Shown here: in pieces, positions 1 to 57,820 of the stretch
Position numbering within the stretch: the stretch's first letter is position 1
Layout: each line of letters opens with the position of its first letter
DNA from: Spirochaetia bacterium
GTDB taxonomy: Bacteria; Spirochaetota; Spirochaetia; SP-2023
Direction: 5' to 3'
Assembly: GCA_965225855.1 (NCBI GenBank)
Contig: CBDDCK010000005.1
Location: 1,440,001-1,504,000 of the forward strand
DNA length: 64,000 nucleotides
Position numbers and translations under genes: made by a program
The notes under the pieces: generated by a model
The model's input: the letters and a program-made list of their open reading frames with translations, nothing else
Databases searched by the model: none
What the model was told of the DNA's origin: nothing

Positions 1-1060
1 AAATACCTACCACTGCACTCTGCAACCCTTCTTCGCCACTACACAATGGTTGGGTTCCGTTGTGCATGGTATCTAGCAATTCTTCCATAATGTAATGGTC
101 GCCATCTCCGTGGCCCCCGCCTATGTTGTCAATATGGCGTGCTTCATCTTCGCCTAATATGCGGTAAATTAGCTGCCCGCTATATAGCTCTACAATTAGA
201 TTCCCGCTAGTACAGTGGAAGTACATGCGCCGTTCGGGTATGCAGTTGCTCATGCTGGCTTGGAATTGTACCCGAATGGAGTTACTGTATTCCATTATGG
301 CAACAACGTTATCTTCAATGCTCTTTGGTGAAACAAAGGCGTTGTCTAGTGCATCGTCAAAGCTAGTTACGTTGGTTTCTCGTTCAAATACTTGTGGGTG
401 CTTCAGGTAAATCGCCTCATTTTCGGGCACAAACATATTGTTGCCCCCGAATGCAGCTATCTTTATTGGGACGGAATCACAGAACCAATTCAGTAAATCT
501 AAATCGTGAACGCACTTTTCTAGGATGTGCGGCCCTGCTAGCTCATACTTTCGTCGCCAATTCTGCATAATATAGTAACCATGATCAGGGGTGATATTCT
601 CGCTGGCATTGATAGAGACTATTTTGCCCAAGCGGCCTGAATTAAGTATTTCTTTGGCTTTGCGGTAAATCGAAGCATAGCGTAGGGTAAAGCCAGTTGC
701 GAGCAACTGGCCACTCTTCTCATGTTCCCGGCGAATTGCCACGCAATCTGCAATGCTGGTAGCTAAAGGCTTTTCGCTAAACACGTGTTTGCCTGCGCGA
801 AATGCCGCTATAATTTGTTCTTTGTGAAATACATTTGGGGAGCCAATAAAGACCCAATCTAGCTGTCCATCGTTGAGTAAATCTTGTAAGGTGGGGTAGA
901 CATGCTTACTGTTTCCCGCTTTGCAAGCTTCCAGCAAAAGTTTGGCATTGGCTTCAATTGGGTCCCATGCACCGAGCACCCGTACTTCTTGGTTGGTATC
1001 AAAGTGAGTAGTTAGGCTAATACTGCGGTTGCCACAGCCAATCACGCCTATATTTATCAT
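1..1060 (-). CDS. Gfo/Idh/MocA family oxidoreductase (3' end runs off the window)
   Basis: Manual minus-strand translation from ATG 1060: MINIGVIGCGNRS... (Rossmann motif), later IGSPNVFH, GKHVFSEKPLA and EKCVHDLD; AGGAG RBS at 1069-1073. Absent from the ORF track because there is no stop inside the window. Confidence 0.9.
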   Translation of the reverse strand, partial: MINIGVIGCGNRSISLTTHFDTNQEVRVLGAWDPIEANAKLLLEACKAGNSKHVYPTLQDLLNDGQLDWVFIGSPNVFHKEQIIAAFRAGKHVFSEKPLATSIADCVAIRREHEKSGQLLATGFTLRYASIYRKAKEILNSGRLGKIVSINASENITPDHGYYIMQNWRRKYELAGPHILEKCVHDLDLLNWFCDSVPIKIAAFGGNNMFVPENEAIYLKHPQVFERETNVTSFDDALDNAFVSPKSIEDNVVAIMEYSNSIRVQFQASMSNCIPERRMYFHCTSGNLIVELYSGQLIYRILGEDEARHIDNIGGGHGDGDHYIMEELLDTMHNGTQPLCSGEEGLQSAVVGI

Positions 1061-1129
1061 TGGTCATTCTCCTATTCTTTGTGGTGATTTGTGGCTGCAA
1101 TTGCTTACATAGCTGGATAGTTCTGGTGT

Positions 1130-1429: not shown

Positions 1430-2119
1430 TTAAAACCAGAAACGCACGCCCAACTCAGCTGGGGTATCCAAGTGGAGCCAGCTTTTTATAGGCTTGTCAA
1501 AGCCAAGGCCAAAGCCAAGCGTTGGTAACGCTTGCAAGAAAATTTCGACAACTTTCGTTTTCTTCCCTATCCAAAAACTCATACCGAGAGGCAAACGCAA
1601 GCCCATAGAAAGCCCAATTAGACTGCCATCATCATAGCTAAAAATAGAAGTAGTCGTCCCCAATGATAAGCGCAGCTCAAACCATTTAGCAGCGAAATGG
1701 CTCAATAACATAAAATTAATGCTTAGATTACCGCCAATATCGTTGCCAAAAACATCATTGAGATTGCGACTATACGATAAAGATTTAGAACCAACGATAC
1801 CGAAATTAAGAAATATAGGAGTTTTCGGAATATGAAAACTAATAGAAGATATTGCATTCGGGAATGAATTTACCTTATTATCAGGGCCTATATCCGTATT
1901 AACATCTTTGTCGAATGTTACAACTGCACCGCTATAGCTAAGGCCTAGGCCCATTCTATCGAACCAAATAGGTTTCGCCTTTTGCTCTGCTCCTTCTGTA
2001 TTATCCATATCTAATGAAGAATCTTTATCTTCCTTAGAGCTAACTTCTTGCTTATCCATTTCTAAAGTAACAAGCATAGACGACATCAAGGAATATTTAT
2101 GGACTTTAAAAAGTAACAA
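1430..2119 (-). CDS. DUF3996/BAPKO_0422-like spirochaete outer-membrane beta-barrel protein; 5' end lies inside the tandem array
   Basis: Alternating hydrophobic strands, GLRLPLGMSFW...EIFLQALPTLG and C-terminal LGVRFWF beta-signal; the start and signal peptide are uncertain. Confidence 0.65.
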   Translation of the reverse strand: MLLFKVHKYSLMSSMLVTLEMDKQEVSSKEDKDSSLDMDNTEGAEQKAKPIWFDRMGLGLSYSGAVVTFDKDVNTDIGPDNKVNSFPNAISSISFHIPKTPIFLNFGIVGSKSLSYSRNLNDVFGNDIGGNLSINFMLLSHFAAKWFELRLSLGTTTSIFSYDDGSLIGLSMGLRLPLGMSFWIGKKTKVVEIFLQALPTLGFGLGFDKPIKSWLHLDTPAELGVRFWF

Positions 2120-3122
2120 GCATAGACGACATCAAGGAATATTTATGGACTTTAAAAAGTAACAAGCATAGACGACATCAAGGAATATTTATGGACTTTA
2201 AAAAGTAACAAGCATAGACGACATCAAGGAATATTTATGGACTTTAAAAAGTAACAAGCATAGACGACATCAAGGAATATTTATGGACTTTAAAAAGTAA
2301 CAAGCATAGACGACATCAAGTAATATTTATGGACTTTAAAAAGTAACAAGCATAGACGACATCAAGGAATATTTATGGACTTTAAAAAGTAACAAGCATA
2401 GACGACATCAAGGAATATTTATGGACTTTAAAAAGTAACAAGCATAGACGACATCAAGGAATATTTATGGACTTTAAAAAGTAATAAGTATGGACGACAT
2501 CAAGGAATATTTATGGACTTTAAAAAGTAATAAGTATGGACGACATCAAGGAATATTTATGGACTTTTGAAAGTAACAAGCATAGACGACATCAAGGAAT
2601 ATTATAGAATTTGAAAAGTAACAAGCATAGACGACATCAAGGAATATTTATGGACTTTAAAAAGTAACAAGCATAGACGACATCAAGGAATATTATAGAA
2701 TTTGAAAAGTAACAAGCATAGACGACATCAAGGAATATTTATGGACTTTAAAAAGTAACAAGCATAGACGACATCAAGGAATATTATAGAATTTGAAAAG
2801 TAACAAGCATAGACGACATCAAGGAATATTTATGGACTTTAAAAAGTAACAAGCATAGACGACATCAAGGAATATTATAGAATTTGAAAAGTAACAAGCA
2901 TAGACGACATCAAGGAATATTTATGGACTTTAAAAAGTAACAAGCATAGACGACATCAAGGAATATTTATGGACTTTGGAAAGTAACAAGCATAGACGAC
3001 ATCAAGGAATATTTATGGACTTTAAAAAGTAACAAGCATAGACGACATCAAGGAATATTTATGGACTTTGGAAAGTAACAAGCATAGACGACATCAAGGA
3101 ATATTTATGGACTTTAAAAAGT
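2065..3122. repeat. Tandem array of 23 units of 46 bp (four 45-bp variant units)
   Basis: Unit AAGTAACAAGCATAGACGACATCAAGGAATATTTATGGACTTTAAA counted 23 times; units 12, 14, 16 and 18 carry ATATTATAGAATTTGAA; no unique spacers. Confidence 0.97.
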
Positions 3123-4464
3123 AGTTGATTATCATGTAACCGGATTTACAAAATTCAGGAACAACATGCCAGACTACACCCGTGTCATAGAAGAATGGAA
3201 CCAAGAAGGAAGATTTATCACTTTTCCCAGCTATGAAATCCATTCATGCTCTGAAGGGGATTATGTTGTTTATTCAGCTCAACCCATAGATACAGTACCT
3301 CAAGTTAAATCTATGAAAGAGCTCCGTGAATTACTCAAAAAAAGAAATCGGCGGGACAAAAAACCTTCCTGATACCTCACCACATAGGTTATAAAACAGG
3401 ATACAGAGGAATCAATTGGGAAACTTTCGATTCCGAATTATCACCTTTTGTGGAAATCATATCAATGCATGGTGCTGCCGAATAATGACAACTATTCGGG
3501 CCTCCCCTATCTGCACACCATGGGGCCCCTATATTACGAAAATACCGTCAGAGGTGAATTAGATCGTGGAGCATTCTTTGGCATCACTGGATCCACCGAT
3601 CATCACAACGCTCATCGTGGAAGTTATGGCTATGGACGTATTGCTGTTCTTGCCGAAACTCTTTCCAGAGATGCCTTGTGGAATGCCATGCAAGACAGAA
3701 AAATCTATGCCGTAACAGGCGACAAGATATGGCTTGAAACCACCTTTGATAGTCATCTCATGGGGTCGATTCTAAGCTCTACCTCATCAAGAGAAATGGA
3801 AATCGATATCAAGGCAGGGTATACCCTTGATACAGTACATATTATAAAGAATGGCCTTACTGCTGAAATATTCAACTTTCCAGAAATTGCCAGAATATGG
3901 GGAGAGCAACAGCGAAAAAAAGGAAAAGTTATTATAGAAGTCGGTTGGGGAGAAAAAGGAGTTGCTCAAAACTGGGATTTCACACTGGAAGTTATTGATG
4001 GAGATTTGATTGATATAGAACCGAGGTTGCATGGCATTGACATCGTTGCTCCACTTGACGATTATGTTTCCGAGTGTCAGTTCACCGATTGGGACAGAAA
4101 TGGAATAAACAGACTCTCATGCAGAACAATCACATGGTGCAATCCAACAACTCCCACATCTTCGGTTCAGGGATTTTGCCTTGAAATATCAGGAACACGT
4201 CAAACCTCAATCAAGATGACCATGGGCACTTGGACACGTTCATATTCCCTTGAACAGCTCATAAGAGGCGATCACACAGATTACCTTGCTGACTTTCTTT
4301 CAGCCGCAGTAAAATTCGGACGATTTATCCCTGAACAGGAATATACTGCTAAATTAAGGTGGAAAGATGAGGGGACGGTTAACGAACGGGATGACTATTA
4401 CATTAGAGTGATTCAGAAAAACAACCAAAGAGCTTGGAGTTCACCCATAAGGATATTACGATAA
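3121..4464 (+). pseudogene. 5'-truncated, doubly frameshifted DUF3604/PHP-like metallohydrolase
   Basis: Coding continuity VVDYHVTGF...FITFPSYEIHS (3121-3360), frameshift to FLIPHHIGYKTGYRGINW...VEIISMHG (3360-3483), second frameshift to the 338-aa ORF with GSTDHH, YAVTGDKI and YYIRVIQKN..AWSSPI. The N-terminus is replaced by the array. Confidence 0.75.
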
Positions 4465-6523: not shown

Positions 6524-7336
6524 ATGGCAGAGGTATTGATACAGATAATAGATATTTGCAAGAGATATTTGGGTAGTAATGGTTCCATTGCAATAAATGC
6601 GCTCGATAATGTGTCCCTAGATATTTTAGAAAATGAATTTGTCTGTGTAGTGGGTCCTTCTGGCTGTGGCAAAACCACACTTTTAAATATTATTGCTGGG
6701 CTAGAACCTTTTGAGTCTGGGAGTATTACTATGCACGGTGAATATATTGTTGGGCCAGGCCCAGATCGCGGTGTGATTTTTCAACAATACGCGCTTTTTC
6801 CATGGATGACGGTAAAAAAGAATATCGAATATGGAATGAAATTCCTTACCAAAACCAACAAATCGGGCAAAAAAGTTCGATTGAGTACGAAAGAAAAAGA
6901 AGAGATGGCACTGCATTATATTGATATGGTTCATTTGACCGGTTTTGCCGATTGTTATCCAAAGGCTCTTTCTGGAGGTATGAAGCAGCGCGTTGCGATT
7001 GCGCGAGCCTATGTCATGAATCCCGATGTGCTATTAATGGACGAGCCATTTGGTGCCCTAGATGCACAGACCCGTGCCCAACTTCAAGAATACTTGCTTG
7101 AAACTTGGCAAACAGAGAGGAAAACCTGCTTTTTCATTACTCACGATGTCGATGAAGCCGTGTTATTGGCCAGTCGCGTAGTAATTATGAGTGCCAGACC
7201 GGGCGAAATTTCTGAAATAATATCGATTGATTTGCCTTACCCAAGAGATCAATCAACAAAAATGGATAGTCAATTTCTGGAATACAGAAATCATATTTGG
7301 AATAGCGTTTATAAAATGTATTTAGAAAGGGACTAA
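6524..7336 (+). CDS. ABC transporter ATP-binding protein (SsuB/TauB type)
   Basis: GPSGCGKTT, LSGGMKQRVAIARA, LLMDEPFGALD. Confidence 0.95.
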   Translation: MAEVLIQIIDICKRYLGSNGSIAINALDNVSLDILENEFVCVVGPSGCGKTTLLNIIAGLEPFESGSITMHGEYIVGPGPDRGVIFQQYALFPWMTVKKNIEYGMKFLTKTNKSGKKVRLSTKEKEEMALHYIDMVHLTGFADCYPKALSGGMKQRVAIARAYVMNPDVLLMDEPFGALDAQTRAQLQEYLLETWQTERKTCFFITHDVDEAVLLASRVVIMSARPGEISEIISIDLPYPRDQSTKMDSQFLEYRNHIWNSVYKMYLERD

Positions 7337-7378
7337 ATATACGTCCCATGCAAAAAATTAAATTTCGGAGGTAAATTT

Positions 7379-8530
7379 ATGAATAATTCAATAAAAAAAC
7401 AATTTGGCTTCATTCTGCTTGGCCTTGTTTTGTTTCCTGTTCTCGGACATGGTAGAGGAGCAGCAAGTTCTGATGAGGGATTGCAGAAGGTGCGGGTTGG
7501 TGTACACGCCAACGAAGGTGGCATACCGCTGGCCGCTGTGGGCAAAGATCAAGGCTTTTTTCGCAAATACGGCATTGAGCCAGTGTTTACTATTGTGGAA
7601 AGCGGCCCTTCAGAGATGGTGGCCATGCGTGCTGACAATCGCACATTAGATATAGGTTTTATCGGTGCAGGTGTAGCATGGAACCCTATTGATGGCGCAG
7701 GAAATTCTCTTTCGTTTGTTTTTCTTGATAATGTCAGCAGCTCTGAAATGCTTTTGGCTCAAAAGGGAATCTTTGTCGATTCAGATGGAAATGGCAAATT
7801 CTCTAATGCAGAAATCTATGCTGGGCTAAAGGGCAAAACAGTTTTTATTGAAGTTGGCACGACTCCCGGCGGCTGGTTTAAGACTCTTCTTGAATTAGTA
7901 AATGAAGGCAAAGACGATAGCAATAAATTATGGCTTTCTAGCGAAACCGCCGCTTATATGGCTGGCTATTCGGCACCCAATGCAAACTCAGCCAATAAAG
8001 TAATGGTTGTCAATACTTTAAACACAAACCTTCCTGCTGGTATGGCTTCAAACGGCAATATGGATATTGTAGCCGGTTTTTCACCCGCCACAACAACCAT
8101 ACTCAGAACAAATAAAAGTGTAGAAATTATTGCAACTACGGTAAATAATTTCCCACCGGAGGCGTCGTTCCCATCAACCTGGGTTGCCAGTGATGTGTGG
8201 TTGGACCAAAACCCTGAGCTAGCACAGAATTTTGTCAATGCCTTGTATGAATCAGCTATATGGAGACACAAAAATATTGATGCCGCTATGCGCAGCGGCG
8301 AAAAGCTGGCACAGAAACCAACGAATTCCTTTGATTCCAACAACATAGTTGACCCATCTAAAGCCAATTACCAATCCTGGTTTCAAGATAGAGATTCTCT
8401 TGGCTACGCATATATGAAATCACTTTATGATTCTCGCGTTCCTAACGTACCCCAAGGTAACCCCGTAAAAACTTTTGAGCAGTCATTTAAAGATGATTAT
8501 ATGCTTAATGCAATCCGTAACTTGCAATGA
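7379..8530 (+). CDS. ABC transporter substrate-binding protein (SsuA/NMT1-like)
   Basis: Signal peptide, GFFRKYGIE...DIGFIG motif, operon context. Confidence 0.8.
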   Translation: MNNSIKKQFGFILLGLVLFPVLGHGRGAASSDEGLQKVRVGVHANEGGIPLAAVGKDQGFFRKYGIEPVFTIVESGPSEMVAMRADNRTLDIGFIGAGVAWNPIDGAGNSLSFVFLDNVSSSEMLLAQKGIFVDSDGNGKFSNAEIYAGLKGKTVFIEVGTTPGGWFKTLLELVNEGKDDSNKLWLSSETAAYMAGYSAPNANSANKVMVVNTLNTNLPAGMASNGNMDIVAGFSPATTTILRTNKSVEIIATTVNNFPPEASFPSTWVASDVWLDQNPELAQNFVNALYESAIWRHKNIDAAMRSGEKLAQKPTNSFDSNNIVDPSKANYQSWFQDRDSLGYAYMKSLYDSRVPNVPQGNPVKTFEQSFKDDYMLNAIRNLQ

Positions 8531-8615
8531 AATATAGAGCCATCTGTAGCAAATTTTTCATACTTCCCTTAGACAGTTTCCCCTAATGGAAGTATTGTAA
8601 TTTGAAGTTTTCCTT

Positions 8616-8975
8616 ATGAAAAAGAAATGGTACCAAAGTGGAAAGGACCCAGATTATCGGTTTTCTTTGGCCAACGAGCGCACCTTTTTGGCTTGGATTC
8701 GTACAGCTTTGTCATTTTTAGCTGGAGGTTTGGCTGTCAATCAGTTTGTGGAAGGCTTGGGAGTGGCAGTATTTCGGGATATTGTTGCTATTTTGCTTAG
8801 CATTAGTGCTGCAATGATTGCTATTTACGCCTACATTCACTGGGCCAACAATGAAAAAGCTATGCGTCAAAATAGAAAATTGTATTGTGCTCCTTTTTTG
8901 ACGGTGCTTAGCATCGTTATTCTTTTACTTGCTTTGCTCTTAGTTCATTTAATTCTCTTTGTCGATCAGAAATGA
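8616..8975 (+). CDS. yidH: YidH family (DUF202) membrane protein
   Basis: GKDPDYRFSLANERTFLAWIRT signature. Confidence 0.9.
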   Translation: MKKKWYQSGKDPDYRFSLANERTFLAWIRTALSFLAGGLAVNQFVEGLGVAVFRDIVAILLSISAAMIAIYAYIHWANNEKAMRQNRKLYCAPFLTVLSIVILLLALLLVHLILFVDQK

Positions 8976-9361
8976 CGGATACAAAGAGGCCATCTCCTCT
9001 CTTAAAAGACAAAAGCAAAGCAGAAATTGATTGCGGCCTACAGCCCGAACGCACATTACTGTCTTGGCAGCGAAGTTTGGGTTCCTACCTGCTTACCGCG
9101 ATGTTGCTATTGCGCAGTGCCATAAAACAAGAATCGTTTTTATTGGTAATTCTTTTTTCTGTTATGCTACTGCTTACAATATTTCTATACAGCTACTTAT
9201 ATTTCTACAAGTTCCAAGCTCTCCAAAATTGGAAACAAGGGCAAACACAAAGTGTACTAAACCCTATAAGCTTGTGGTCTAAGATACTTATAGCTGGAAG
9301 TATTGCGCTCTGTGCTGTTCTCGTGACGGGATTTTGGCTCTACAGAGCTGTCAGAATATAG
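8972..9361 (+). CDS. DUF202 (YidG-like) membrane protein
   Basis: DCGLQPERTLLSWQRS signature; ATGA overlap with yidH. Confidence 0.8.
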   Translation: MTDTKRPSPLLKDKSKAEIDCGLQPERTLLSWQRSLGSYLLTAMLLLRSAIKQESFLLVILFSVMLLLTIFLYSYLYFYKFQALQNWKQGQTQSVLNPISLWSKILIAGSIALCAVLVTGFWLYRAVRI

Positions 9362-9409
9362 GGGTTACCGGCTTAGGGGGATTGATCAAGTTTTCGCCTG
9401 GTCTGATAG

Positions 9410-9556
9410 TGCCACGTAAAAATGCTGGGAAAGGCTAGCAAGTTTTTGATCTGGTTGGAGGTGTAGTCCATGCGCTCTGTCTGTGCCGATGATGGTAGCA
9501 ACGGCAGCCAGAAACTTTTTGGGGCATTATCTTTTCTGGGTTAGGGTTGGCCCAGC
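9410..9556 (-). pseudogene. Degraded fragment of an NAD(P)-dependent malic enzyme
   Basis: Across frameshifts the minus strand gives ANPNPEKIMP / AAVATIIGTDR / DYTSNQIKNLLAFPSIF, in the same order as malic enzyme ANPxPEIxP...[22 protein letters not shown]. Confidence 0.6.
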
Positions 9557-10176
9557 ACAATTGAATGAGTAGTTAGGTGAAAGAGGACATGATAACTGAA
9601 CGGGATAAGAAAGACGCGATAACTCGGGATTTTTTGGGACAAATGGGAAGGTAAAATTGGCTTACTTTCCAAAATAAAAAAGTAAAAAATTTTTCATTGC
9701 ACGAGAAAAAGCCAGAATCCATTTTTAACACCAAACCAGAGCAAAAAACGCTCAAAACTTCAAAAAGCCAAAGCGGTGCTAGGATAACCAAACCATGCAC
9801 CGCTTTTTTTATGCCTTTCGGCTGAATCCACAAATGGAACAAGTAAAAAATTTTTGTTTTTCGGCCTATGGGTCATTGTCGGCAGTAATTGGGCAACAAT
9901 ATGCTTTCAAAATATCATGGTAACGGGCCACGGTCTCAAAAAGCTAGTAAGGTTTCTGAAAAAAGCTAGTAAGGTTTTGACTGAAAACCTTACTAGCTTT
10001 TTTGATTGGCAACCTGGGGATTTTCCAACAAACCCGATCAACACTGTATTGTCAAAATTCTTTGCGTGAAGAGCCCCGACTAAATACCCAGAAGCCCATA
10101 TAGCCCAAGCTAAAGTACCCTAACACAAAAAAAGTACCCTAACACAAAAAAACTTACAAAAAGCCTTATAAAGGCC

Positions 10177-10203
10177 TTGACGCAACACCCCCCCTAGCAA
10201 AAT
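10177..10203 (+). promoter_or_regulatory. Putative sigma70 promoter with poly-C spacer (conserved in all three cassettes)
   Basis: TTGACG-CAACA-C7-TAG-CAAAAT; C6 in copy 2 (36710-36715), C7 in copy 3 (55358-55364); the -10 assignment is uncertain. Confidence 0.45.
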
Positions 10204-10266
10204 AGGGATTTACACACTAGCCCGTATGGGTTGGTTAATCTTTATCCATTGTTGGAGGTATTGCTT

Positions 10267-12345
10267 ATGTATAAGCACAAACTATTTTTATTGCCATTAG
10301 CCTGGCTACTGGTCTTTATGGCCTTGGCCTGCGCACCACCCGATGACGATGATCGATCTTCTGGGCCTGCAATCACCAGTGCAAGCTACGACTTTGCTAC
10401 GGCGCTGTTAACCGTACAAGGTACTGACTTAAGTCCTACAGAAGCGCAAATCCAAACCATCGTAGTAGATGGCGTAGCCTTCAGTTCCTATACTGCAGAT
10501 GACCCAGCCACTGGGCCAGATAGTAGCGATCTTGCAAAAGGTAAGTACCGTATTGCAACCGATGGCACAAAGCTTTGGCTGAAACTTAAAGATCAACATA
10601 AAGCTGCTCTTGAGGCCAAGGTGGGTAGCAATGGTCTAAAAAAAGGGTTGCTTACTAGCTCTGGTGCTTGGGCGGGTTTAGATACAGCCAAAGACTTAAC
10701 CGTTAGCAATATACCCGATAAGCCATCTAAGCAAGCCGAACAAGCCGAACAAACCGAACAGCAGTCGCCTAAGCAAGCTAAAGTCGAACAAGCTGAACAA
10801 GCCAAACAAGCTGAACAAACCGAAGAAGTCGAAGATAAGCAGTCTAAGACCGAAACTGAAGATCAGTCGCTTAAGCTACCCGAAGCTGCAATTACCGGTG
10901 CAAGCTACAATGTTGGCACGGCGCTGCTAACTGTACAAGGTTCTAACTTAAATGCTACCAGTGCGACCCAAGCGCAAATCCAAACTATCACGGTAGCTGG
11001 CATAGCCTTCAGTTCCTATACTGCAGATGACCCAGCCACTGGGCCAGATAGTCGCAGTCTTGCAAAAGGTAAGTACCGCCTACATAGCGCTGGCACAGCG
11101 CTTTGGCTTTACCTTACCGATCAACATAAAACTACTCTGAATGGCAAGACAGGTATGGATAGCAATGGTCTAAAAGATGGGTTGCTTACTACTAGCACTG
11201 GTACTTGGGCGGGTTTAGATACAGCCAAAGGCTTGGCCGTTAGTGGAAACCCCGAAATCACCAGTGCAACCTACAATGTTGTTAAAGGCGTGTTAGTGAT
11301 TACAGGTGTCAATTTACCAAAAGCAGTTACAGGCTGGGACTTCACCCAATTGAGGTTTGTTGCAGGTGATGGTCGTAAGAGTCAACCATTATTACGGCAC
11401 AGACCAACCGGTATAAACAGTGCCAGAGGTTCTGCAGCAAGTGCAACAAGCTTAACGATTACTTTAAAGGGTAGTGAATACGATAAAGCCGAGGCTATAC
11501 TGGTTAAGAATGGTAAAAGTGATAATGATGGTGCATACAACCTGGAAGCAGCAGCAGGATTTGCAGGTGGTAGCGCAGCAGACACAAGCAATAACCCTAT
11601 TACCGTTAGTGGCTATGTAGGTTTTATCAAAGACTTATACTACAATGTTGGTACAGGCGTGTTATTTATTCAGGGTAATAATTTACCGAGAGCAGTTGCA
11701 GACTGGGACTTTAGCAAATTGACGCTTGTATCCGGTGATGGTCGTAAGAGATACACATTACCCCAGCACGCAACCGCAGGTGAAAACAAAGCCACAGGTT
11801 CTTTAGCAAGTAGAGTCGGCTTAAGGATTACTTTAAGCGGTAGTGTAAAAGCGGAAGCCGAGAAGATACTGGTTAAGGATGGTCAAAGTGATGATAATGG
11901 TGCATACAACCTGGAAGCAGCAGCAGGATTTGCAGGTTATAGCGCTGAAGACACAAGCAACCCTATTACCGTTAGTGGCTATGTAATCTATCTCGACTAC
12001 GTATCATACAGAGCTAATAAAGGCCATTTATATATTAGTGGTAACAGGTTACCGACAGCAGTTGCAGACTGGGACTTTAGCAAATTGACGCTTGTATCCG
12101 GTGATGGTAAGAAGAAATATAAATTACCCCAGCACGCAATAGGTGAAAACACAGCCACAGGTTCTAGTGCAGGTGTAATCTACTTATTGATTATTTTAAG
12201 CGGTAGTGTAAAAGCGGAAGCCGAGAAGATACTGGTTAAGAATGGTTATAGTGATAATAATGGTGCATATAACCTGGAAGCAGCAGCAGGATTTGTACCT
12301 GGTAGTCTAGCAGACCCAACAACTAAGATTTTGGTTGGTAAGTAG
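10267..12345 (+). CDS. Modular repeat surface lipoprotein, variant 1 (A-linker-A-B-B-B)
   Basis: GGAGG RBS then ATG 10267; MYKHKLFLLPLAWLLVFMALA-C lipobox; Q/E-rich linker; about 120-aa repeats of two types. Confidence 0.9.
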   Translation: MYKHKLFLLPLAWLLVFMALACAPPDDDDRSSGPAITSASYDFATALLTVQGTDLSPTEAQIQTIVVDGVAFSSYTADDPATGPDSSDLAKGKYRIATDGTKLWLKLKDQHKAALEAKVGSNGLKKGLLTSSGAWAGLDTAKDLTVSNIPDKPSKQAEQAEQTEQQSPKQAKVEQAEQAKQAEQTEEVEDKQSKTETEDQSLKLPEAAITGASYNVGTALLTVQGSNLNATSATQAQIQTITVAGIAFSSYTADDPATGPDSRSLAKGKYRLHSAGTALWLYLTDQHKTTLNGKTGMDSNGLKDGLLTTSTGTWAGLDTAKGLAVSGNPEITSATYNVVKGVLVITGVNLPKAVTGWDFTQLRFVAGDGRKSQPLLRHRPTGINSARGSAASATSLTITLKGSEYDKAEAILVKNGKSDNDGAYNLEAAAGFAGGSAADTSNNPITVSGYVGFIKDLYYNVGTGVLFIQGNNLPRAVADWDFSKLTLVSGDGRKRYTLPQHATAGENKATGSLASRVGLRITLSGSVKAEAEKILVKDGQSDDNGAYNLEAAAGFAGYSAEDTSNPITVSGYVIYLDYVSYRANKGHLYISGNRLPTAVADWDFSKLTLVSGDGKKKYKLPQHAIGENTATGSSAGVIYLLIILSGSVKAEAEKILVKNGYSDNNGAYNLEAAAGFVPGSLADPTTKILVGK

Positions 12346-12496
12346 GGTTTGGTTTAACCTTGCTTGCCCAATAGCTCTTATAGCAGCTAAGTGAAAGCTA
12401 GCGGGCAGGCCAACCAAGTAAATGCTGTAAGCAATGCTTGGTTGGCTTTTTTGTTGGGCTATTAGGCTGTATCTTGTTGTTGCAACGCTTGCATTG

Positions 12497-12688
12497 GCCA
12501 ATTATAGCCTTGGTAAGTTTTTTTATCGTGGTTGCTTTTGCCAATTATAGCCTTGGTATGGAGAAAATACCAAGGCTATAAATTTTTTTATTAAGGCTGT
12601 AAATTTTTTTATTAAGGCTGCTTTTGCCAATTATAGCCTTGGTAAATTTTTTTATCAAGGTTGCTTTTGCCAATTCCAGCCTTGGTAT
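12497..12688 (+). repeat. Degenerate 43-bp-period repeats in the cassette right arm, with a hairpin
   Basis: GCCAATT(AT/CC)AGCCTTGGTA at 12497, 12540, 12626 and 12669; inverted pair TTATAGCCTTGGTAT...ATACCAAGGCTATAA at 12545-12581; related units occur in copies 2 and 3. Confidence 0.8.
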
Positions 12689-12721
12689 GTAGAAAAAATC
12701 GAGTTATCACGTCCTGCATCA

Positions 12722-12786
12722 GTTAGGCTAATACTGCGGTTGCCACAGTCAATCACGCCTATATTTATCATTGGTCATTCTCCTAT
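12722..12786 (-). pseudogene. Duplicate of the RBS and first codons of the Gfo/Idh/MocA gene, interrupted by the cassette
   Basis: 64/65 identical to 1011-1075; continues on the other side of the cassette at 9566-9577. Confidence 0.9.
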
Positions 12787-12940
12787 GCATAGTAAATTAC
12801 TTTATATATTATGTATTTCGGTAATTAACATTTGGATTATTAGTGTAACGGTGCACGAAAAATGAAACGCCCTTCAAAAGTCTAAACAACAAAAAATCCC
12901 CAGTGTGAAAACGGGGCTAAATATAAAATAGCAAGGTTAT

Positions 12941-17176: not shown

Positions 17177-17360
17177 GGTTTTACTCCTTAATATTATAAT
17201 AACTACCAATAAATTTGGAAGCACAATTTAAAGCCATTAGCTTATACACGGATAACAAACCCAACACCAAAGCACCAGCAGCAACCATAGGCCTTGTGTT
17301 GGGCTTGCAAAGTGCAATTTGGCACATCGGCCCTTTGGCTTGCTTGGCTTGTGTTTAGGC

Positions 17361-17891
17361 TTATCGTGTAAATAAAGCTGAAACCGAGTCTAAGTCTCTA
17401 TAAACCGAGTCTAAGTTTTTTGAAACCGAGTCTAAGTTTTTTGAAGCCGAGTCGAAGGCTTTTGAAACCGAGTCGAAGTCTCTATAAACCCGATCTAAGT
17501 CTCTATAAACCGAGTCTAAGGCTCTATAAACCGAGTATAAGTCTTTTGAAGCCGAGTCTAAGGCTCTATAAATCCGATCTAAGGCTCTATAAACCAATTT
17601 TAAGTCTCCATAAGCCAATTCTAAGTCTGTATAAGCCAACTGTAAGGCTAAAGGAAACGAGTCTAAGTCTTTTGAAGCCGATTTTAAGTCTCTATAAACC
17701 GAGTCTAAGTCTCTATAAACCGAATATAAGTCTTTTGAAGCCGAGTTTAAGTCTCTATAAACCGAGTCTAAGGCTTTTGAAGCCGCCGAGTCTAAACCAT
17801 TTGAAGCCGATAAACCGACTGAAAACGAAAAGCTATCGGTTGGGATTGGTTGCCATAAGTTTAGCAAAAGTAAAAAAATAAAGATTTTCAT
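17361..17891 (-). CDS. Secreted heptad-repeat protein (21-bp / 7-aa tandem repeats)
   Basis: Signal peptide MKIFIFLLLLNLWQP followed by about 20 repeats of LDSVYRD/LDSASKD type. Confidence 0.65.
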   Translation of the reverse strand: MKIFIFLLLLNLWQPIPTDSFSFSVGLSASNGLDSAASKALDSVYRDLNSASKDLYSVYRDLDSVYRDLKSASKDLDSFPLALQLAYTDLELAYGDLKLVYRALDRIYRALDSASKDLYSVYRALDSVYRDLDRVYRDFDSVSKAFDSASKNLDSVSKNLDSVYRDLDSVSALFTR

Positions 17892-33982: not shown

Positions 33983-36900
33983 TGATGCAGGACGTGATAA
34001 CTTTGTGCCATCGGACGTGATAACTCGACTCTTCTACTTTCCAGAATGGCTATAATTGATAAAAGCAGCCTTGATAAAAAAACTTACCAAGGCTATAATT
34101 GGCCAATGCAAGCGTTGCAACAACAAGATACAGCCTAATAGCCCAACAAAAAAGCCAACCAAGCATTGCTTACCGCATTTACTTGGTTGGCCTGCCAGCC
34201 AGCTTTCATTTAGCTGCTCTAAGAGCTATTGGGCAAGCGCAGTCAAACTAAATTAATTACCAACCAAAATATTAGTTCTTCGGTCTGCTGGACTACCCAT
34301 TACAAATCCTGCTGCTGCTTCCAGGTTGTATTCACCAGTATCATCACTAATACCATTCTTAACCAGTATCTTCTCGGCTTCCGCTTTTACACTACCGCTT
34401 AAAGTAATATATAAGTTTGTTGCACTTGCACGAGAACCTGTGGCTGTGTTTTCACCTGCGGTTGCGTGCTTAGGTAATGTGTATCTCTTACTACTATCAC
34501 CGGATACAAGCGTCAATTTGCTAAAGTCCCACTCTGCAACTGTTGTCGGTAAATTAGTACCCTGAATCACTAACTCGCCTCTATTAGCATAGTAGATTGA
34601 GGCGATGATGCTGGCTACATACCCACTAACGGTAATAGGGTTACTTGTGTCTTCAGCGCTACCACCTGCAAATCCTGCTGCTGCTTCCAGGTTGTATGCA
34701 CCATTATCATCACTATCACCATTCTTAACCAGTATACTATTGGCTTTATCGTATTCAGTACCCTTTAAAGTAATCGTTAAGCTTGTTGCACTGGCTGCAG
34801 AACCTGTGGCTCTGTTTATACCGGTTGGTCTGTGCCATAATAATGGTTGACTCTTACGACCATTACCTGCGACAAGCCTCAATTTGGTGAAGTCCCAGCC
34901 TGTAACTGCTTTTGGTAAATTAGTGCCTGTAATCACTAACATGCCTGTAACAATATTGTAGGTTGCACTGGTAATTGCGGGTGCGGGGTTTCCACTAACG
35001 GTTAAGTCTTTGGCTGTATTTAAACCCGCCCAAGCACCAGTGCCAACGCTAAGTAACCCATCTTTTAGACCATTGCTATCCATACCTGTTTTGCCATTCA
35101 GAGTAGCTTTATGTTGATCGGTAAGTTTCAGCCAAAGCGCTGTACCATCGTTTTTCATGCGGTACTTACCTTTTGCAAGACCGCGACTATCTGGCCCAGT
35201 GGCATCGTCATCTGCAGTATAGGAACTTAAGGCTAGGCCATCTACCACGATGGTTTGGATTTGGGCTTGGGTCGCACTAGCTAAGTCAGTACCTTGTACA
35301 GTTAACAGCGCCGTGCCAACATTGTAGCTTGCACGGGTAATTGCGGGGTTACCACTAACGGCCAAGGCTTTGGCTGTATTTAAACCCGCCCAAGCACCAG
35401 TGCCAACGCTAAGCAACCCATCTTTTAGACCATTGCTATCCATACCTGTCTTGCCATTCAGAGTAGTTTTATGTCGATCGGTAAGTTTCAGCCAAAGCGC
35501 TGTGCCAGCGCTATGCAGGCGGTACTTACCTTTTGCAAGACTGCGACTATCTGGCCCAGTGGCTGTGCCATCTGCAGTATAGGAACTTAAGGCTAAGCCA
35601 TCTACCGTGATGGTTTGGATTTGGGCTTGGGTCGCACTACCTAAGTGAGTACCTTGCAAGGTTAACAGCGCCGTGCCAACATGGTAGCTTGCACCGGTAA
35701 TTGCGGGGTTTCCACTAACGGTTAAGGCTTTGGCTGTATCTAAACCCGCCCAACTACCAGTGCTAGTAAGCAACCCATCTTTTAGACCATTGCTATCCAT
35801 ACCGTCCTTGCCATTCAGAGTAGTTTTATGTTGATCGGTAAGGTAAAGCCAAAGCGCTGTGCCATCGCTTTTAATACGGTACTTACCTTTTGCAAGACTG
35901 CTACTATCTGCCCCAGTGGCTGTGCCATCTGCAGTATAAGAATTTAAGACTAGGTCATATACTTTGATGGTTTGGATTTGGGCTTGGGTCGCAGTTGTAG
36001 GACTTAAGTTAGAACCTTGTACAGTTAGCAGCGCCGTGCCAACATGGTAGCTTGCACGGGTAATTGCAGCTTCAGGCGACTGCTCTTCAGCTTGTTCGAC
36101 TTGTTCAGCTTGTTCGTCTTCAGTTTGCTTAGATGGCTGATTGTCATCGGATACTTTAGACTGCTTATCGGGTACATTCCTAACGGTTAAGTCTTTGGCT
36201 GTATTTAAACCCGCCCAAGCACCAGAGCTAGTAAGCAACCCTTTTTTTAGACCATTGGTATTCATACCCACCTTGGTCTGAAGAGCAGCTTTATGTGGAT
36301 CGGTAAGTCTAAGCCAAAGCTCTGTGCCATCGTTTGCAATACGGTACTTACCTTTTGCAAGACCGTTACTATCTGGCCCAGTGGCTGGGTCATCTGCAGT
36401 ATAGGAATCTAAAGCTATGCCATCTACTACGATGGTTTGGATTTGGGCTTCTGTAGGACTTAAGTCAGTACCTTGTACGGTTAACAGAGCCGTAGCAAAG
36501 TCGTAGATGGCATTATTGATAGACGGCCCAGAAGATGGCCCAGAAGATCGATCATCGTCATCGGGTGGGGCGCAGGCCAAGGCCATAAAGGCCAGTAGCA
36601 ATGCTACAGGCAATAAAAGTAGTTTGAGCTTATACATAAGCAATACCTCCAACAATGGATAAAGATTGGCCAACCCATACGGGCTAGTCTGTAAATCCCC
36701 ATTTTGCTAGGGGGGTGTTGCGTCAAGGCCTTTATAAGGCTTTTTGTAAGTTTTTTTGTGTTAGGGCACTTTTTTTGTGTCTTAGTGTTGTAAGGTGGTT
36801 CAAAATCCATGCCAATCAAAAGGCTTGAGATTATTTGAGATACCTTGGGTAAAAATTTGTAATACGCTAGACGCAGTCCGGGCGTTGCGTTGCGTATGAT

Positions 36901-37305
36901 CGTACGAAACATCATGGCACAAAGTATAAGAATAAGAATTTGAGTTTTTTGTATCGCAGTACAGCCCAGTTTTTAGCAAAATAATACAATACAATTTTTT
37001 GCGATTTTTTTAGAGACTGCCACAGCCTCGTTGGAAAATCCCCAGGTTGCCAATCAAGAAAGCTAGTAAGGTTTTCAGTCAAAACCTTACTAGCTTTCTT
37101 CAGAAACCTTACTAGCTTTTTGAGACCGTGGCCCGTTACCATGATATTTTAAAAGCATATTGTTGCCGACAACCCATATGCCGAAAAACAAAAATTTTTT
37201 TACCTTTTTATTTTGGAAAGTAAGCCAATTTTTACCTTCCATTTGTCCCCAAAAAAATCCCGAGTTATCGCGTCTTATCCCGTTCAGTTATCATGTTCCG
37301 GATCA
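33983..37305 (-). mobile_element. Non-autonomous cassette copy 2 (3323 bp, both ends present, no matching TSD)
   Basis: Right end TGATGCAGGACGTGATAACT...GGACGTGATAACT at 33983; left end (minus) TGATCCGGAACATGATAACT...GACGCGATAACT at 37305; arms homologous to copy 1. Confidence 0.85.
34253..36637 (-). CDS. Modular repeat surface lipoprotein, variant 2 (A-linker-A-A-A-B-B)
   Basis: Paralog of 10267-12345 with the same RBS and lipobox (FMALA-C); four A and two B repeats. Confidence 0.9.
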   Translation of the reverse strand: MYKLKLLLLPVALLLAFMALACAPPDDDDRSSGPSSGPSINNAIYDFATALLTVQGTDLSPTEAQIQTIVVDGIALDSYTADDPATGPDSNGLAKGKYRIANDGTELWLRLTDPHKAALQTKVGMNTNGLKKGLLTSSGAWAGLNTAKDLTVRNVPDKQSKVSDDNQPSKQTEDEQAEQVEQAEEQSPEAAITRASYHVGTALLTVQGSNLSPTTATQAQIQTIKVYDLVLNSYTADGTATGADSSSLAKGKYRIKSDGTALWLYLTDQHKTTLNGKDGMDSNGLKDGLLTSTGSWAGLDTAKALTVSGNPAITGASYHVGTALLTLQGTHLGSATQAQIQTITVDGLALSSYTADGTATGPDSRSLAKGKYRLHSAGTALWLKLTDRHKTTLNGKTGMDSNGLKDGLLSVGTGAWAGLNTAKALAVSGNPAITRASYNVGTALLTVQGTDLASATQAQIQTIVVDGLALSSYTADDDATGPDSRGLAKGKYRMKNDGTALWLKLTDQHKATLNGKTGMDSNGLKDGLLSVGTGAWAGLNTAKDLTVSGNPAPAITSATYNIVTGMLVITGTNLPKAVTGWDFTKLRLVAGNGRKSQPLLWHRPTGINRATGSAASATSLTITLKGTEYDKANSILVKNGDSDDNGAYNLEAAAGFAGGSAEDTSNPITVSGYVASIIASIYYANRGELVIQGTNLPTTVAEWDFSKLTLVSGDSSKRYTLPKHATAGENTATGSRASATNLYITLSGSVKAEAEKILVKNGISDDTGEYNLEAAAGFVMGSPADRRTNILVGN

Positions 37306-54248: not shown

Positions 54249-54380
54249 AGTATTCTATCTCCTATTTAAACCAATGGCCATAATAATAGCAATATTGTTT
54301 GCACAATTCAATAGCCATACCCTTTACCCCATAAATAACCATGATAGTTGCTAAAATCAACAAAGCAATCTTTCGATAGC

Positions 54381-54529
54381 ACTTGTTGCAACCGATAACA
54401 AATGCTTGTTCCAACCGATAACAAGAACTTGTTCCAACCGATAACAAGAACTTGTTCCAACCGATAACAAGAACTTGTTCCAACCGATAACAAGAACTTG
54501 TTCCAACCGATAACAAGAACTTGTTCCAA
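54381..54529. repeat. Tandem array of about 6.5 units of 23 bp
   Basis: Unit ACTTGTTCCAACCGATAACAAGA starting at 54381, 54404, 54427, 54450, 54473, 54496 and 54519; unit junctions form the palindrome AACAAG-AA-CTTGTT. Confidence 0.95.
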
Positions 54530-54705
54530 TAAATTTTTATAGAGAAACAATATATATATTTTATTATCCATAAAATTATAAAATATAATCTATCCCATTT
54601 TCTATCTATGCTCTTTTTAGTTACAATGCGCACAATATAGCTTAGCCATTGCCTAGCTATGGCCTTAGCTATGGCTAAGCTATACCCAATAAATGTGAGT
54701 GCACT

Positions 54706-55436: not shown

Positions 55437-57509
55437 ATGTATAAGCTCAAACTATTTTTATTGCCTGTAGCCTGGCTACTGGCCTTTATGGCCTTGGCCT
55501 GCGCCCCACCCGATGACGATGATGCATCTTCTGGGCCGACTTCTGGGCCTGCAATCACCAGTGCAAGCTACGATGTTGACACGGCTCTGCTAACTGTACA
55601 AGGTACTGACTTAGGTAGTGCGCAACAAGCGCAAATCCAAACTATCAGGGTAGCTGGCCTAGCCTTAAATTCTTATACTGCCACAGCCACTGGGGTAAAT
55701 AGTAACGGTCTTAAACAAGGTCAGTACCGTATTGCAAACGATGGCACTGCGATTTGGCTTAGACTTAAAGATGAACATAAAGATACTCTTAAAGCTACTC
55801 TGAATGGCAAACCCGATATGGCTAACGATGGTCTAAAAAAAGGCTTGCTTAGCGTTAGCTCTGGTAGTTGGGCGGGTTTAGATACAGCCAAAGACTTAAC
55901 CGTTAGGAATATACCCGGTAAGCAGTCTAAGACCGAAACTGAAGATAAGCAGTCTAAGACCGAAGTCGAAGAAGCTGAACAAGTCAAAGAAACTGAAGAA
56001 GCCGAACAAACCGAACAAGACCAACAAGCTGAAGAGGAGTCGCCTAAAGCTGCAATTACCCGTGCCATCTACGATGTTGGCACGGCTATCTTAACTGTAC
56101 AAGGTACTCACTTAAGTAGTGCGACCCAAGCGCAAATCCAAACCATCAAAGTATATGACCTAGTCTTAAGTTCCTATATTGCAGATGGCACAGCCACTGG
56201 GCCAGATAGTCGCAGTCTTACAAAAGGTAAGTACCGTATGAAAAGCGATGGCACAGCGCTTTGGCTGAAACTTACCGATCGACATAAAGCTGCTCTTGAG
56301 GCCAAGACAGGTATGAATAAGGATGGTCTAAAAAAAGGGTTGCTTAGCGTTAGCTCTGGTGCTTGGGCGGGTTTAAATACAGCCAAAGACTTGGAAGTTA
56401 GTGGAAACCCCGAAGCTGCAATTACCAGTGCAACCTACCATGTTGGCACGGCTCTGCTAACTTTACAAGGTTCTAACTTAAGTCCTACAACTGCGACCCA
56501 AGCGCAAATCCAAACTATCACGGTAGATGGCTTAGCCTTAAGTTCCTATATTGCAGATGACACAGCCACTGGGTCAGATAGTCGTGGTCTTGCAAAAGGT
56601 AAGTACCGTATTAAAAGAGATGGCACAGCGCTTTGGCTTTACCTTACCGATCAACATAAAACTACTCTTCAGGGCAAGCCCGGTATGAATAAGGATGGTA
56701 GAAAAGTCGGGTTGCTTAGCGTTGGCACTGGTATTTGGGCGGGTTTAAATACAGCCAAAGCCTTGGCTGTTAGTGGAAACCCTGCAATTACCAGTGCAAC
56801 CTACCATGTTGTTACAGACTTGTTAGTGATTACAGGTACTAATTTACCGTCAACAGTGGATGGCTGGGACTTTAGCAAATTGAGGTTTGTATCCGGTGGT
56901 GGTCTTGAGAGTCAACCATTAAAAAAGCACTCAACTACAGGTGCACACAGAGCCACAGGTTCTGCAGCAAGTGGCACATTCTTAGCGATTATTTTAAAGG
57001 GTTATGAAATACTGAAAGTCCGTAATACATTGCTTCTGAATGGTCTTGGTGATGATGATGGTGCATACAATCTGGAAGCAGCAGCAGGATTTGTAATTGG
57101 TAGTAGCGCAGCAGACACAAGTAACCCTATTACCGTTAGTGGCTACATAAGCTCTATCAGCTCCGTACGCTACTATCCTAATAAAAGCGAGCTAAGGATT
57201 TACGGTAGCAAGTTACCGAAAACAGTTGCAGACTGGGACTTTAGCAAATTGACGCTTGTATCCGGTGATGGTAATAAGAGATACTCATTACCTAAGCACG
57301 CAACAGGTGCTGCAAACACAGCCACAGGTTCTAAGGCAAGTAGAAGCGGCTTAAAGATTACTTTAAGCGGTAGTGTAAAAGCGGAAGTCGAGAAGATACT
57401 GGTTAAGGTTGGTCTTCGTGATAATAATGGTGAATACAACCTGGAAGCAGCAGCAGGATTTGTAACGGATAATCCAGAAGACCCAATCACTAGTGTATTC
57501 AAGCACTAG
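55437..57509 (+). CDS. Modular repeat surface lipoprotein, variant 3 (A-linker-A-A-B-B)
   Basis: Paralog with the same RBS and lipobox; three A and two B repeats; the stop lies in a 16-bp tandem duplication (57488-57519). Confidence 0.9.
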   Translation: MYKLKLFLLPVAWLLAFMALACAPPDDDDASSGPTSGPAITSASYDVDTALLTVQGTDLGSAQQAQIQTIRVAGLALNSYTATATGVNSNGLKQGQYRIANDGTAIWLRLKDEHKDTLKATLNGKPDMANDGLKKGLLSVSSGSWAGLDTAKDLTVRNIPGKQSKTETEDKQSKTEVEEAEQVKETEEAEQTEQDQQAEEESPKAAITRAIYDVGTAILTVQGTHLSSATQAQIQTIKVYDLVLSSYIADGTATGPDSRSLTKGKYRMKSDGTALWLKLTDRHKAALEAKTGMNKDGLKKGLLSVSSGAWAGLNTAKDLEVSGNPEAAITSATYHVGTALLTLQGSNLSPTTATQAQIQTITVDGLALSSYIADDTATGSDSRGLAKGKYRIKRDGTALWLYLTDQHKTTLQGKPGMNKDGRKVGLLSVGTGIWAGLNTAKALAVSGNPAITSATYHVVTDLLVITGTNLPSTVDGWDFSKLRFVSGGGLESQPLKKHSTTGAHRATGSAASGTFLAIILKGYEILKVRNTLLLNGLGDDDGAYNLEAAAGFVIGSSAADTSNPITVSGYISSISSVRYYPNKSELRIYGSKLPKTVADWDFSKLTLVSGDGNKRYSLPKHATGAANTATGSKASRSGLKITLSGSVKAEVEKILVKVGLRDNNGEYNLEAAAGFVTDNPEDPITSVFKH

Positions 57510-57660
57510 TGTATTCAAGTTTTAAATTAAAGTAGGATTTGGTTGTTGTAAGCAATGCTTGCATTGGCCAATTGCAGCCTTGGTAAGTTTTTTTATCAAG
57601 GCTGCTTTTACCAAGTTATAGCCTTGGTATAAAGTATTGTTCCGCATTGGTGCAATACAT

Positions 57661-57700
57661 CTTTCCGCCTTGGATCAAGGCCTTGATCCAAGGCGGAAAG
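57661..57700. repeat. Perfect 40-bp palindrome in the cassette right arm
   Basis: CTTTCCGCCTTGGATCAAGG/CCTTGATCCAAGGCGGAAAG. Confidence 0.9.
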
Positions 57701-57820
57701 CTATATCATAGCAAGGCTAGAAAAATTTATTAAGGCTGCTTTTGCCAATTATAGCCTTGGTAAGTAGAAAAAAATCGAGTTATCACGTCCGATGGCACAA
57801 AGTTATCACGTCCTGCATCA

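Follow-up and report, generated by a model that had tools for sequence, protein, structure and literature searches.

Mini-Mu elements are well known as laboratory tools, and for insertion sequence (IS) and transposon (Tn) families natural cassettes with passenger genes have been described. Here we analysed a 64,000-nucleotide stretch of the genome of a Spirochaetia bacterium (GCA_965225855.1, contig CBDDCK010000005.1, positions 1,440,001 to 1,504,000; hereafter the window) that contains a 3,144-bp segment with TG...CA termini, the focal cassette (window 9578-12721), carrying a single lipoprotein gene. An initial annotation of the window had taken this segment for one of a family of non-autonomous DDE transposons. 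The non-autonomous character, the DDE type and the lipoprotein cargo stood, but the family proved to be neither IS-like nor Tn7-like, and its ends are those of a transposable prophage residing in the same genome. We hypothesize that the cassette is a natural mini-phage transposon derived from a B3/BcepMu-type prophage, with a lipoprotein as cargo, that is moved in trans by the phage transposase, an interpretation to which we assign a probability of about 0.8. The cognate transposase is identified by the shared ends only, and its action in trans appears to be the most likely means of movement.

Results

Both termini of the focal cassette were located by direct reading of the sequence at the positions given in the initial annotation, and 16 of the 20 terminal bases are complementary between the left and right ends, forming an imperfect 20-bp inverted repeat. 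The annotation was also right about the GTTAGG hexamer on each side (Table 1) and about the ACRYGATAACT sites, which are spaced 27 bp apart in the left end (positions 10 and 37) and occur once in the right end. This single-site variant is present in 9 of 33 right ends. As had been stated, the segment is transposase-less and the lipoprotein is its sole cargo; the only long open reading frame (ORF) has 704 codons and no match in Pfam.

An autonomous partner with the same ends around a DDE transposase, which the annotation suggested looking for, was found in the form of a 36.1-kb B3-type transposable prophage (C5:1257677-1293766; the genome analysed has 2.71 Mb in 5 contigs, here identified as C followed by a number, and is 94% complete). 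The prophage is bounded by the same two end types as the cassettes. Its ends and those of the cassettes are 77-98% identical, with the identity stopping at the same TG boundary, and the focal cassette shares about 255 bp of left end and 33 bp of right end with it. The sole match in the genome to rve and phrog_310 lies inside this prophage (C5:1273165-1274925), in an open frame with an AAA ATPase partner. A Tn552-like rve transposase accompanied by an AAA ATPase is what characterizes the B3/BcepMu type, and the best matches among phages include B3 and BcepMu at 29-30% identity; no solved structure was found by sequence for the transposase. The ends of B3 and BcepMu have the same TG and 23-bp-spaced site doublet observed here. 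B3/Tn552-type transposases generate 6-bp target duplications (PMC8705779, accessible portion), and the 6-bp duplications of the cassettes fit this class of enzyme. A scan of 26 metagenome loci with the same motif marked eight as having similar ends, four of which hold the transposase pair.

Matches to PHROGs were obtained for 27 of the 35 prophage ORFs scanned, and the genes recognized were those for terminase, portal, repressor, transposition ATPase, late activator, protease, head, sheath, tape measure and baseplate, with open frames for the transposase, the ATPase and the repressor. The right end is intact, the left terminus is altered and no 6-bp duplication was seen at the flanks. Contigs C3 and C4 break off within further prophage right arms, and near the end of C5 there is a longer left end; therefore, an intact copy in a gap of the assembly is possible. 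The baseplate J gene is whole and the tape measure gene broken in the C4 arm. At C3:774 the sequence beyond a prophage right end consists of 156 bp from the repressor region of the prophage itself, an arrangement that resembles insertion into another copy. A 46-bp-type tandem repeat found at many host loci interrupts the portal and baseplate genes (C5:1264372-1264520 and 1292605-1292855). The genome also includes an intact IS1595-family transposase gene and two fragments. A CRISPR-like array at C5:896067-902542 (repeat of about 37 bp, 66-bp period) adjoins an IS1595 transposase and a methylase-like gene.

The initial annotation counted three copies with the same ends in 64 kb. One of the other two, at 33983-37305, indeed has both ends, but the third has a right end only (57820), with no left end upstream. 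The scale had been understated, since the genome holds 31 left and 32 right ends and 108 related lipoprotein genes. These ends come from a motif scan that gave 33 left and 33 right candidates, from which termini not of the TG type were dropped and to which one missed copy was added. Both ends accompany 18 of the 108 genes, 12 have the left end only, 10 the right end only and 68 neither. The proposal that transposons disperse the gene family is sustained for part of it: at least one end accompanies 40 genes, an intact duplication is present at five, and 68 genes are without either end. The paired cassettes measure 2,351-3,704 bp. Recurrence of the ends and of 6-bp duplications elsewhere, also predicted, was confirmed by the genome-wide tabulation: an exact duplication flanks five of the 18 pairs, although the probability that a given pair matches by chance is 0.0014 (binomial P of approximately 6e-11, computed with n = 19 although the table has 18 pairs). 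When all 32 × 33 end pairs were compared, flank matches numbered two at a length of 5, eight at 6, and none at 7 or 8. Of the 58 distinct flanks (27 left and 31 right), 24 are centred on TA, compared with 4 of 58 shifted controls. This bias indicates that the majority of ends mark true junctions, also in cases where the matching flank on the other side has been lost. Long ORFs lie within 10 bp of just three ends, a pattern that the purging of insertions in genes would produce. The junctions between phage and host DNA are recurrent: the left part ends at 1257782 or 1257947 and the right part starts at 1293694 or 1293704, each common type being found in about ten or more copies.

The initial annotation regarded window 1005-1075 as the empty site. 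The rejoined focal target does match this region at 98.6%, over only 71 bp (12 bp from the left and the rest from the right). However, the region is the 5′ end of an intact Gfo/Idh/MocA gene; therefore it is a paralogous copy of the target and not an empty allele. The match confirms the 6-bp duplication at the focal site. A spanning match was found for none of the seven other rejoined sites tested (one of eight including the focal one), and among the joints listed for four sequencing runs none skipped the focal cassette.

BLASTP retrieved 114 related ORFs, and the 108 with a signal peptide were counted as the family; five further loci are short or partial. The 108 paralogous genes occupy 8.2% of the genome, and all of them have a lipobox-like Cys at position 22-23. 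The three C-terminal repeats are predicted with confidence to be beta-sandwich domains (pLDDT 93.7), and the best structural matches of this predicted fold are tandem immunoglobulin (Ig) arrays, with low TM-scores. The repeats are 30-40% identical to those of giant proteins, several of which have DUF4347, cadherin-like, Big_9 or RTX domains. A role as adhesins or antigens, which the annotation proposed, is possible for the cargo family in view of its fold, homology and variability. Every gene is a mosaic; the focal locus, for instance, can be tiled by exact matches from 20 different paralogs. Among 100 genes, pairwise pN/pS is 0.85 for the first domain, 1.16 for the next and 1.54 for the last (95% interval 1.25-1.91), values that are uncorrected and possibly biased by recombination. 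The last value suggests that the distal Ig-like domain of these putative surface lipoproteins is diversifying under selection.

A run of C lies between the putative −35 and −10 boxes of 102 promoters, the −10 box being our own assignment. The run is C6 in 16 promoters, C7 in 84, C8 in one and C9 in one, with spacers of 14, 15, 16 and 17 bp in the same numbers. The promoter with the 17-bp spacer, at C5:803129, includes the genome's only run of nine C. A slippage switch at these promoters is possible, but homopolymers are error-prone. A consensus promoter scan found 7 hits compared with 5.6 in shuffled sequences, which is no excess. Three long divergent paralogs (978-1279 aa; C5:353763, 571748 and 209202) lack phage ends, have different promoters and are possible ancestral forms.

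Some loci call for processes beyond simple transposition. Prophage DNA was found near 22 of the 68 end-less loci (at two of them only through a neighbour's end), compared with one of 300 control windows. The commonest scrap is true phage coding DNA and comes from a baseplate gene with 79% identity to the prophage of a congener, Ca. Haliotispira prima (H. prima). Short direct repeats are no commoner at the boundaries of end-less loci than in shuffled sequences (at least 6 bases in 19 of 69, compared with 18.8). Scraps of 52-156 bp of old flank are carried at several ends, including 65 bp at the focal cassette. The cassette at C5:402010-405934 sits between two copies of a 232-bp direct repeat with 99% identity, an arrangement that requires two junctions to have been brought together, either by replicative transposition or by unequal recombination; a deletion, as the reciprocal outcome, would explain the unmatched end pairs. 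No reverse transcriptase was found in the genome. Two tyrosine recombinases are present.

There is also a second family of ends. A sharp TG-bounded module closes 14 lipoprotein loci (e.g., C5:1319633), in four cases opposite a B3-type left end, and has copies at window 12844 and 43532; a related module opens three loci. With 16 of 20 bases in agreement with the Mu right end, it scores highest in the genome; a copy in the congener G001 (G001:C4:30410) agrees at 35 of 50. A MuA-type transposase for this family was not found by a search whose controls were also silent. An earlier capture of the family by a Mu-type element is a lead only.

The cassette left end was found in none of 30 relatives and the site doublet in none of five. 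The cargo was absent from five relatives searched with one protein and from three searched with a profile, in genomes 79-92% complete. Neither cassette ends nor cargo were found in three congeners, and therefore the family expanded in the lineage that holds these ends. Two of the three congeners carry related prophages with ends in one or two copies: those of the H. prima prophage are single-copy, and the G001 end has two copies, both at phage segments. In H. prima a 28-kb element (G002:C1:229792-257556) has both ends and genes for transposition and tail, with no match to terminase, portal or head in the stretch fetched. Diverged strains with both the ends and the cargo are represented in sequencing runs of a second study. 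For five database proteins, identity to the nearest paralog in the genome is 76-86%. Viral contigs gave no end match and one weak cargo match of 47 residues.

The features of the window are listed in Table 1. Tandem arrays are present at 1921-3250, 17347-17850 and 54355-54538, with units of 46, 21 and 23 bp, respectively.

Table 1. Coordinates of the focal cassette, its flanks and related features in the window.
Feature	Position	Strand	Basis or remark
Target-site duplication, left copy, GTTAGG	9572-9577	+	Sequence
Phage-derived left end: TG terminus, two ACRYGATAACT sites (9587, 9614), about 255 bp prophage-like	9578-9834	+	86.8% over 266 columns to C5:1257688-1257947
Non-coding mosaic, pieces common to other paralog loci	9835-10176	+	Exact-match tiling
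Putative promoter: TTGACG, 15-bp spacer including C7 run, CAAAAT; possible slippage switch	10177-10203	+	Missed by consensus scan
Cargo lipoprotein, 692 aa: signal peptide with Cys22, Ig-like repeats, Q/E/K-rich linker, variable C-terminal domain	10267-12345	+	
43-bp-type repeats and hairpin, 3′ of cargo gene; in most paralogs	12490-12703	+	
Phage-derived right end, single-site variant	12683-12721	-	Prophage right end has two sites
Target-site duplication, right copy	12722-12727	+	Sequence
Flank scrap; together with 9566-9577 duplicates 1005-1075 (5′ end of Gfo/Idh/MocA gene)	12728-12786	+	
Uninterrupted paralogous target copy, inside start of intact oxidoreductase gene on minus strand	1005-1075	+	
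Second cassette, both ends, without duplication; left flank common to 4 other left ends, within another paralog's upstream DNA	33983-37305	-	
Third paralog, right end only	55437-57820	+	
Stand-alone copy of second, Mu-R-like end motif, outside focal cassette	12844-12870	+	

Discussion

These data can be arranged in the following pathway. As the cassette sequences show, a host surface-lipoprotein gene that brings its own promoter has taken the place of the prophage interior, leaving about 60-270 bp of phage left end and mostly 40-70 bp of right end in each cassette. The transposase and ATPase of the 36-kb prophage may then recognize these ends by their two sites and mobilize the cassette (2.4-3.7 kb) in trans. 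Insertion would produce 6-bp duplications at TA-centred sites, in keeping with the ends, duplications and target bias observed. Replicative transposition and recombination between copies would join the ends of different insertions, with the loss of most duplications; one 232-bp duplication of this kind is visible and the deletions are presumed. Segmental gene conversion among the 108 paralogs would shuffle promoters, ends and Ig-like domains, as their mosaicism suggests, and selection would keep the genes open and diversify the distal domain, as pN/pS indicates, perhaps for adhesion or immune evasion.

Several observations weigh against this interpretation. The portal, tape-measure and baseplate J genes are broken in the C5 prophage, where some breaks may be assembly errors, and its assembled left terminus deviates from the consensus in the first 11 bases. 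The duplication is missing from 13 of the 18 paired cassettes, and 46 of the 68 genes with neither end have no phage DNA. One outer flank is common to five left ends and 52 bp of flank to two right ends, which indicates that those ends spread by recombination and not by a junction of their own. There is no near-identical gene pair (best 95%, median best 86%), so no fresh transposition is visible. The allelic empty site that the initial annotation proposed to seek in reads or strains was not seen in the rejoined-site matches or in the run contigs. Three flank matches between distant ends are within chance (1.2 expected, P of about 0.12-0.14). For this reason, such matches were rejected as proof of reciprocal inversions. 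The flank ATTAGG is common to two ends at C5:1590138-1616622, one right and one left, separated by 26.5 kb; they may delimit a composite with host genes, but this match too is within chance.

The size of the family invites a different account, in which it spread mainly by ectopic copying of fragments, the phage ends being one module of the patchwork and only a handful of loci deriving from transposition. The loci with neither end, whose boundaries show no short repeats in excess, the scraps of former flank carried by cassettes, and the end-less genes that are often the closest relatives of end-bearing ones are all compatible with it, by a copying route for which no reverse transcriptase was found. 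However, the 58 distinct flanks with their common target bias imply dozens of transposition junctions, the phage DNA found close to 20-22 end-less loci points to an origin from cassettes, and the expansion took place in the lineage with these ends. We consider this account possible but doubtful. It is, in any case, compatible with the focal cassette being a true insertion. Transposition founded many loci but probably not all, the rest being eroded cassettes or copies made by a route that does not involve the transposase. A broader and rather unlikely scenario is that of a domesticated transposition machine: the virion-defective prophage would supply the transposase, cassettes would have seeded most of the 108 loci (with the older Mu-type ends acting earlier), conversion would diversify them, and the poly-C tract would silence nearly all, leaving the single C9 copy on.

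It is improbable that the cassette never moved and that whole prophages made the duplications, their interiors being later overwritten by the lipoprotein gene through recombination. The extensive conversion among paralogs, the prophage right arms that run off C3 and C4, and loci that resemble intermediates, having 320-350 bp of the phage right end as well as phage scraps inside, would suit such a history, but the recurrent junctions are better explained by copying of ready-made cassettes than by repeated independent replacement of 36 kb, and in the congeners each prophage end tested occurs only once or twice. A cassette derived from an IS or Tn and moved by a non-phage transposase could be thought of because of the IS1595-family gene and the 94% completeness of the genome. 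This idea is largely refuted: the ends continue into prophage sequence and do not bracket the IS1595 gene. Misassembly of repeats has still less probability. Contigs do break at paralogs and prophage arms, and no short-read contig spans the focal cassette; nonetheless, exact 6-bp duplications at five loci and a target bias are unlike the result of collapse. In addition, a contig from run X1, which may be the source sample, matches 7300-9602 without difference, although it reaches only 25 bases into the element, below the 31-base bar.

Cassettes and the cognate phage transposase occur together in a single genome, and the junctions number in the dozens, which makes the mini-phage transposon hypothesis directly testable. 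If it is correct, transposable phages can be helpers that amplify host genes, and a host-associated bacterium would have a route to devote 8% of its genome to a variable surface-protein family. A simple screen is also suggested, in which genomes are searched for short elements whose ends are those of transposable prophages residing there.

Phytoplasma potential mobile units and sequence-variable mosaics resemble the present system in that mobile or phage-derived repeats are tied to genes for membrane or secreted proteins and reshaped by recombination. The phytoplasma units are multi-gene and have their own transposase, whereas these are single-gene, transposase-less cassettes. Borrelia cp32 erp/mlp, Treponema tpr and Mycoplasma vlp are families of paralogous surface lipoproteins diversified by conversion and tied to prophages, some of them switched by homopolymers; to our knowledge, none consists of phage-ended mini-transposons. 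A literature search largely outside subscription journals found no natural phage-ended cargo cassette in the portions of the sources accessible, and those of PMC13626063 and PMC8987985 contain nothing on the subject. MIC231 and mic-qnrD have in common with our cassettes the inverted repeats, the lack of a transposase, the target duplication (here at five of 18 pairs) and a passenger gene, which in our cassettes is presumably also expressed and mobilised in trans (PMC3913671, accessible portion). While MIC231 uses the ends and transposase of IS231A, the ends here continue into prophage DNA, the probable helper is the phage's, and the copies form a large recombining surface-protein family. The putative helper is similar to B3/BcepMu-type phages and Leptospira TG-CA prophages in its TG...CA-type ends with a doublet and in the rve transposase with an AAA ATPase; non-autonomous derivatives of these phages are not described in the accessible portion of PMC8705779. 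It also resembles them in the DUF3164, Mor-like activator, Mu-like head and contractile tail genes and in its 36 kb, and differs from them in its rearranged gene order, broken virion genes and altered left terminus. In design the cassettes are like engineered mini-Mu and mini-D3112, where the phage ends are kept, the interior is gone and a passenger is moved by the phage transposase (PMC8705779, same portion). Unlike those constructs, the cassettes described here are natural, of B3/Tn552 type with a 6-bp duplication, transposase-less, and devoted to one host gene family present in dozens of chromosomal copies.

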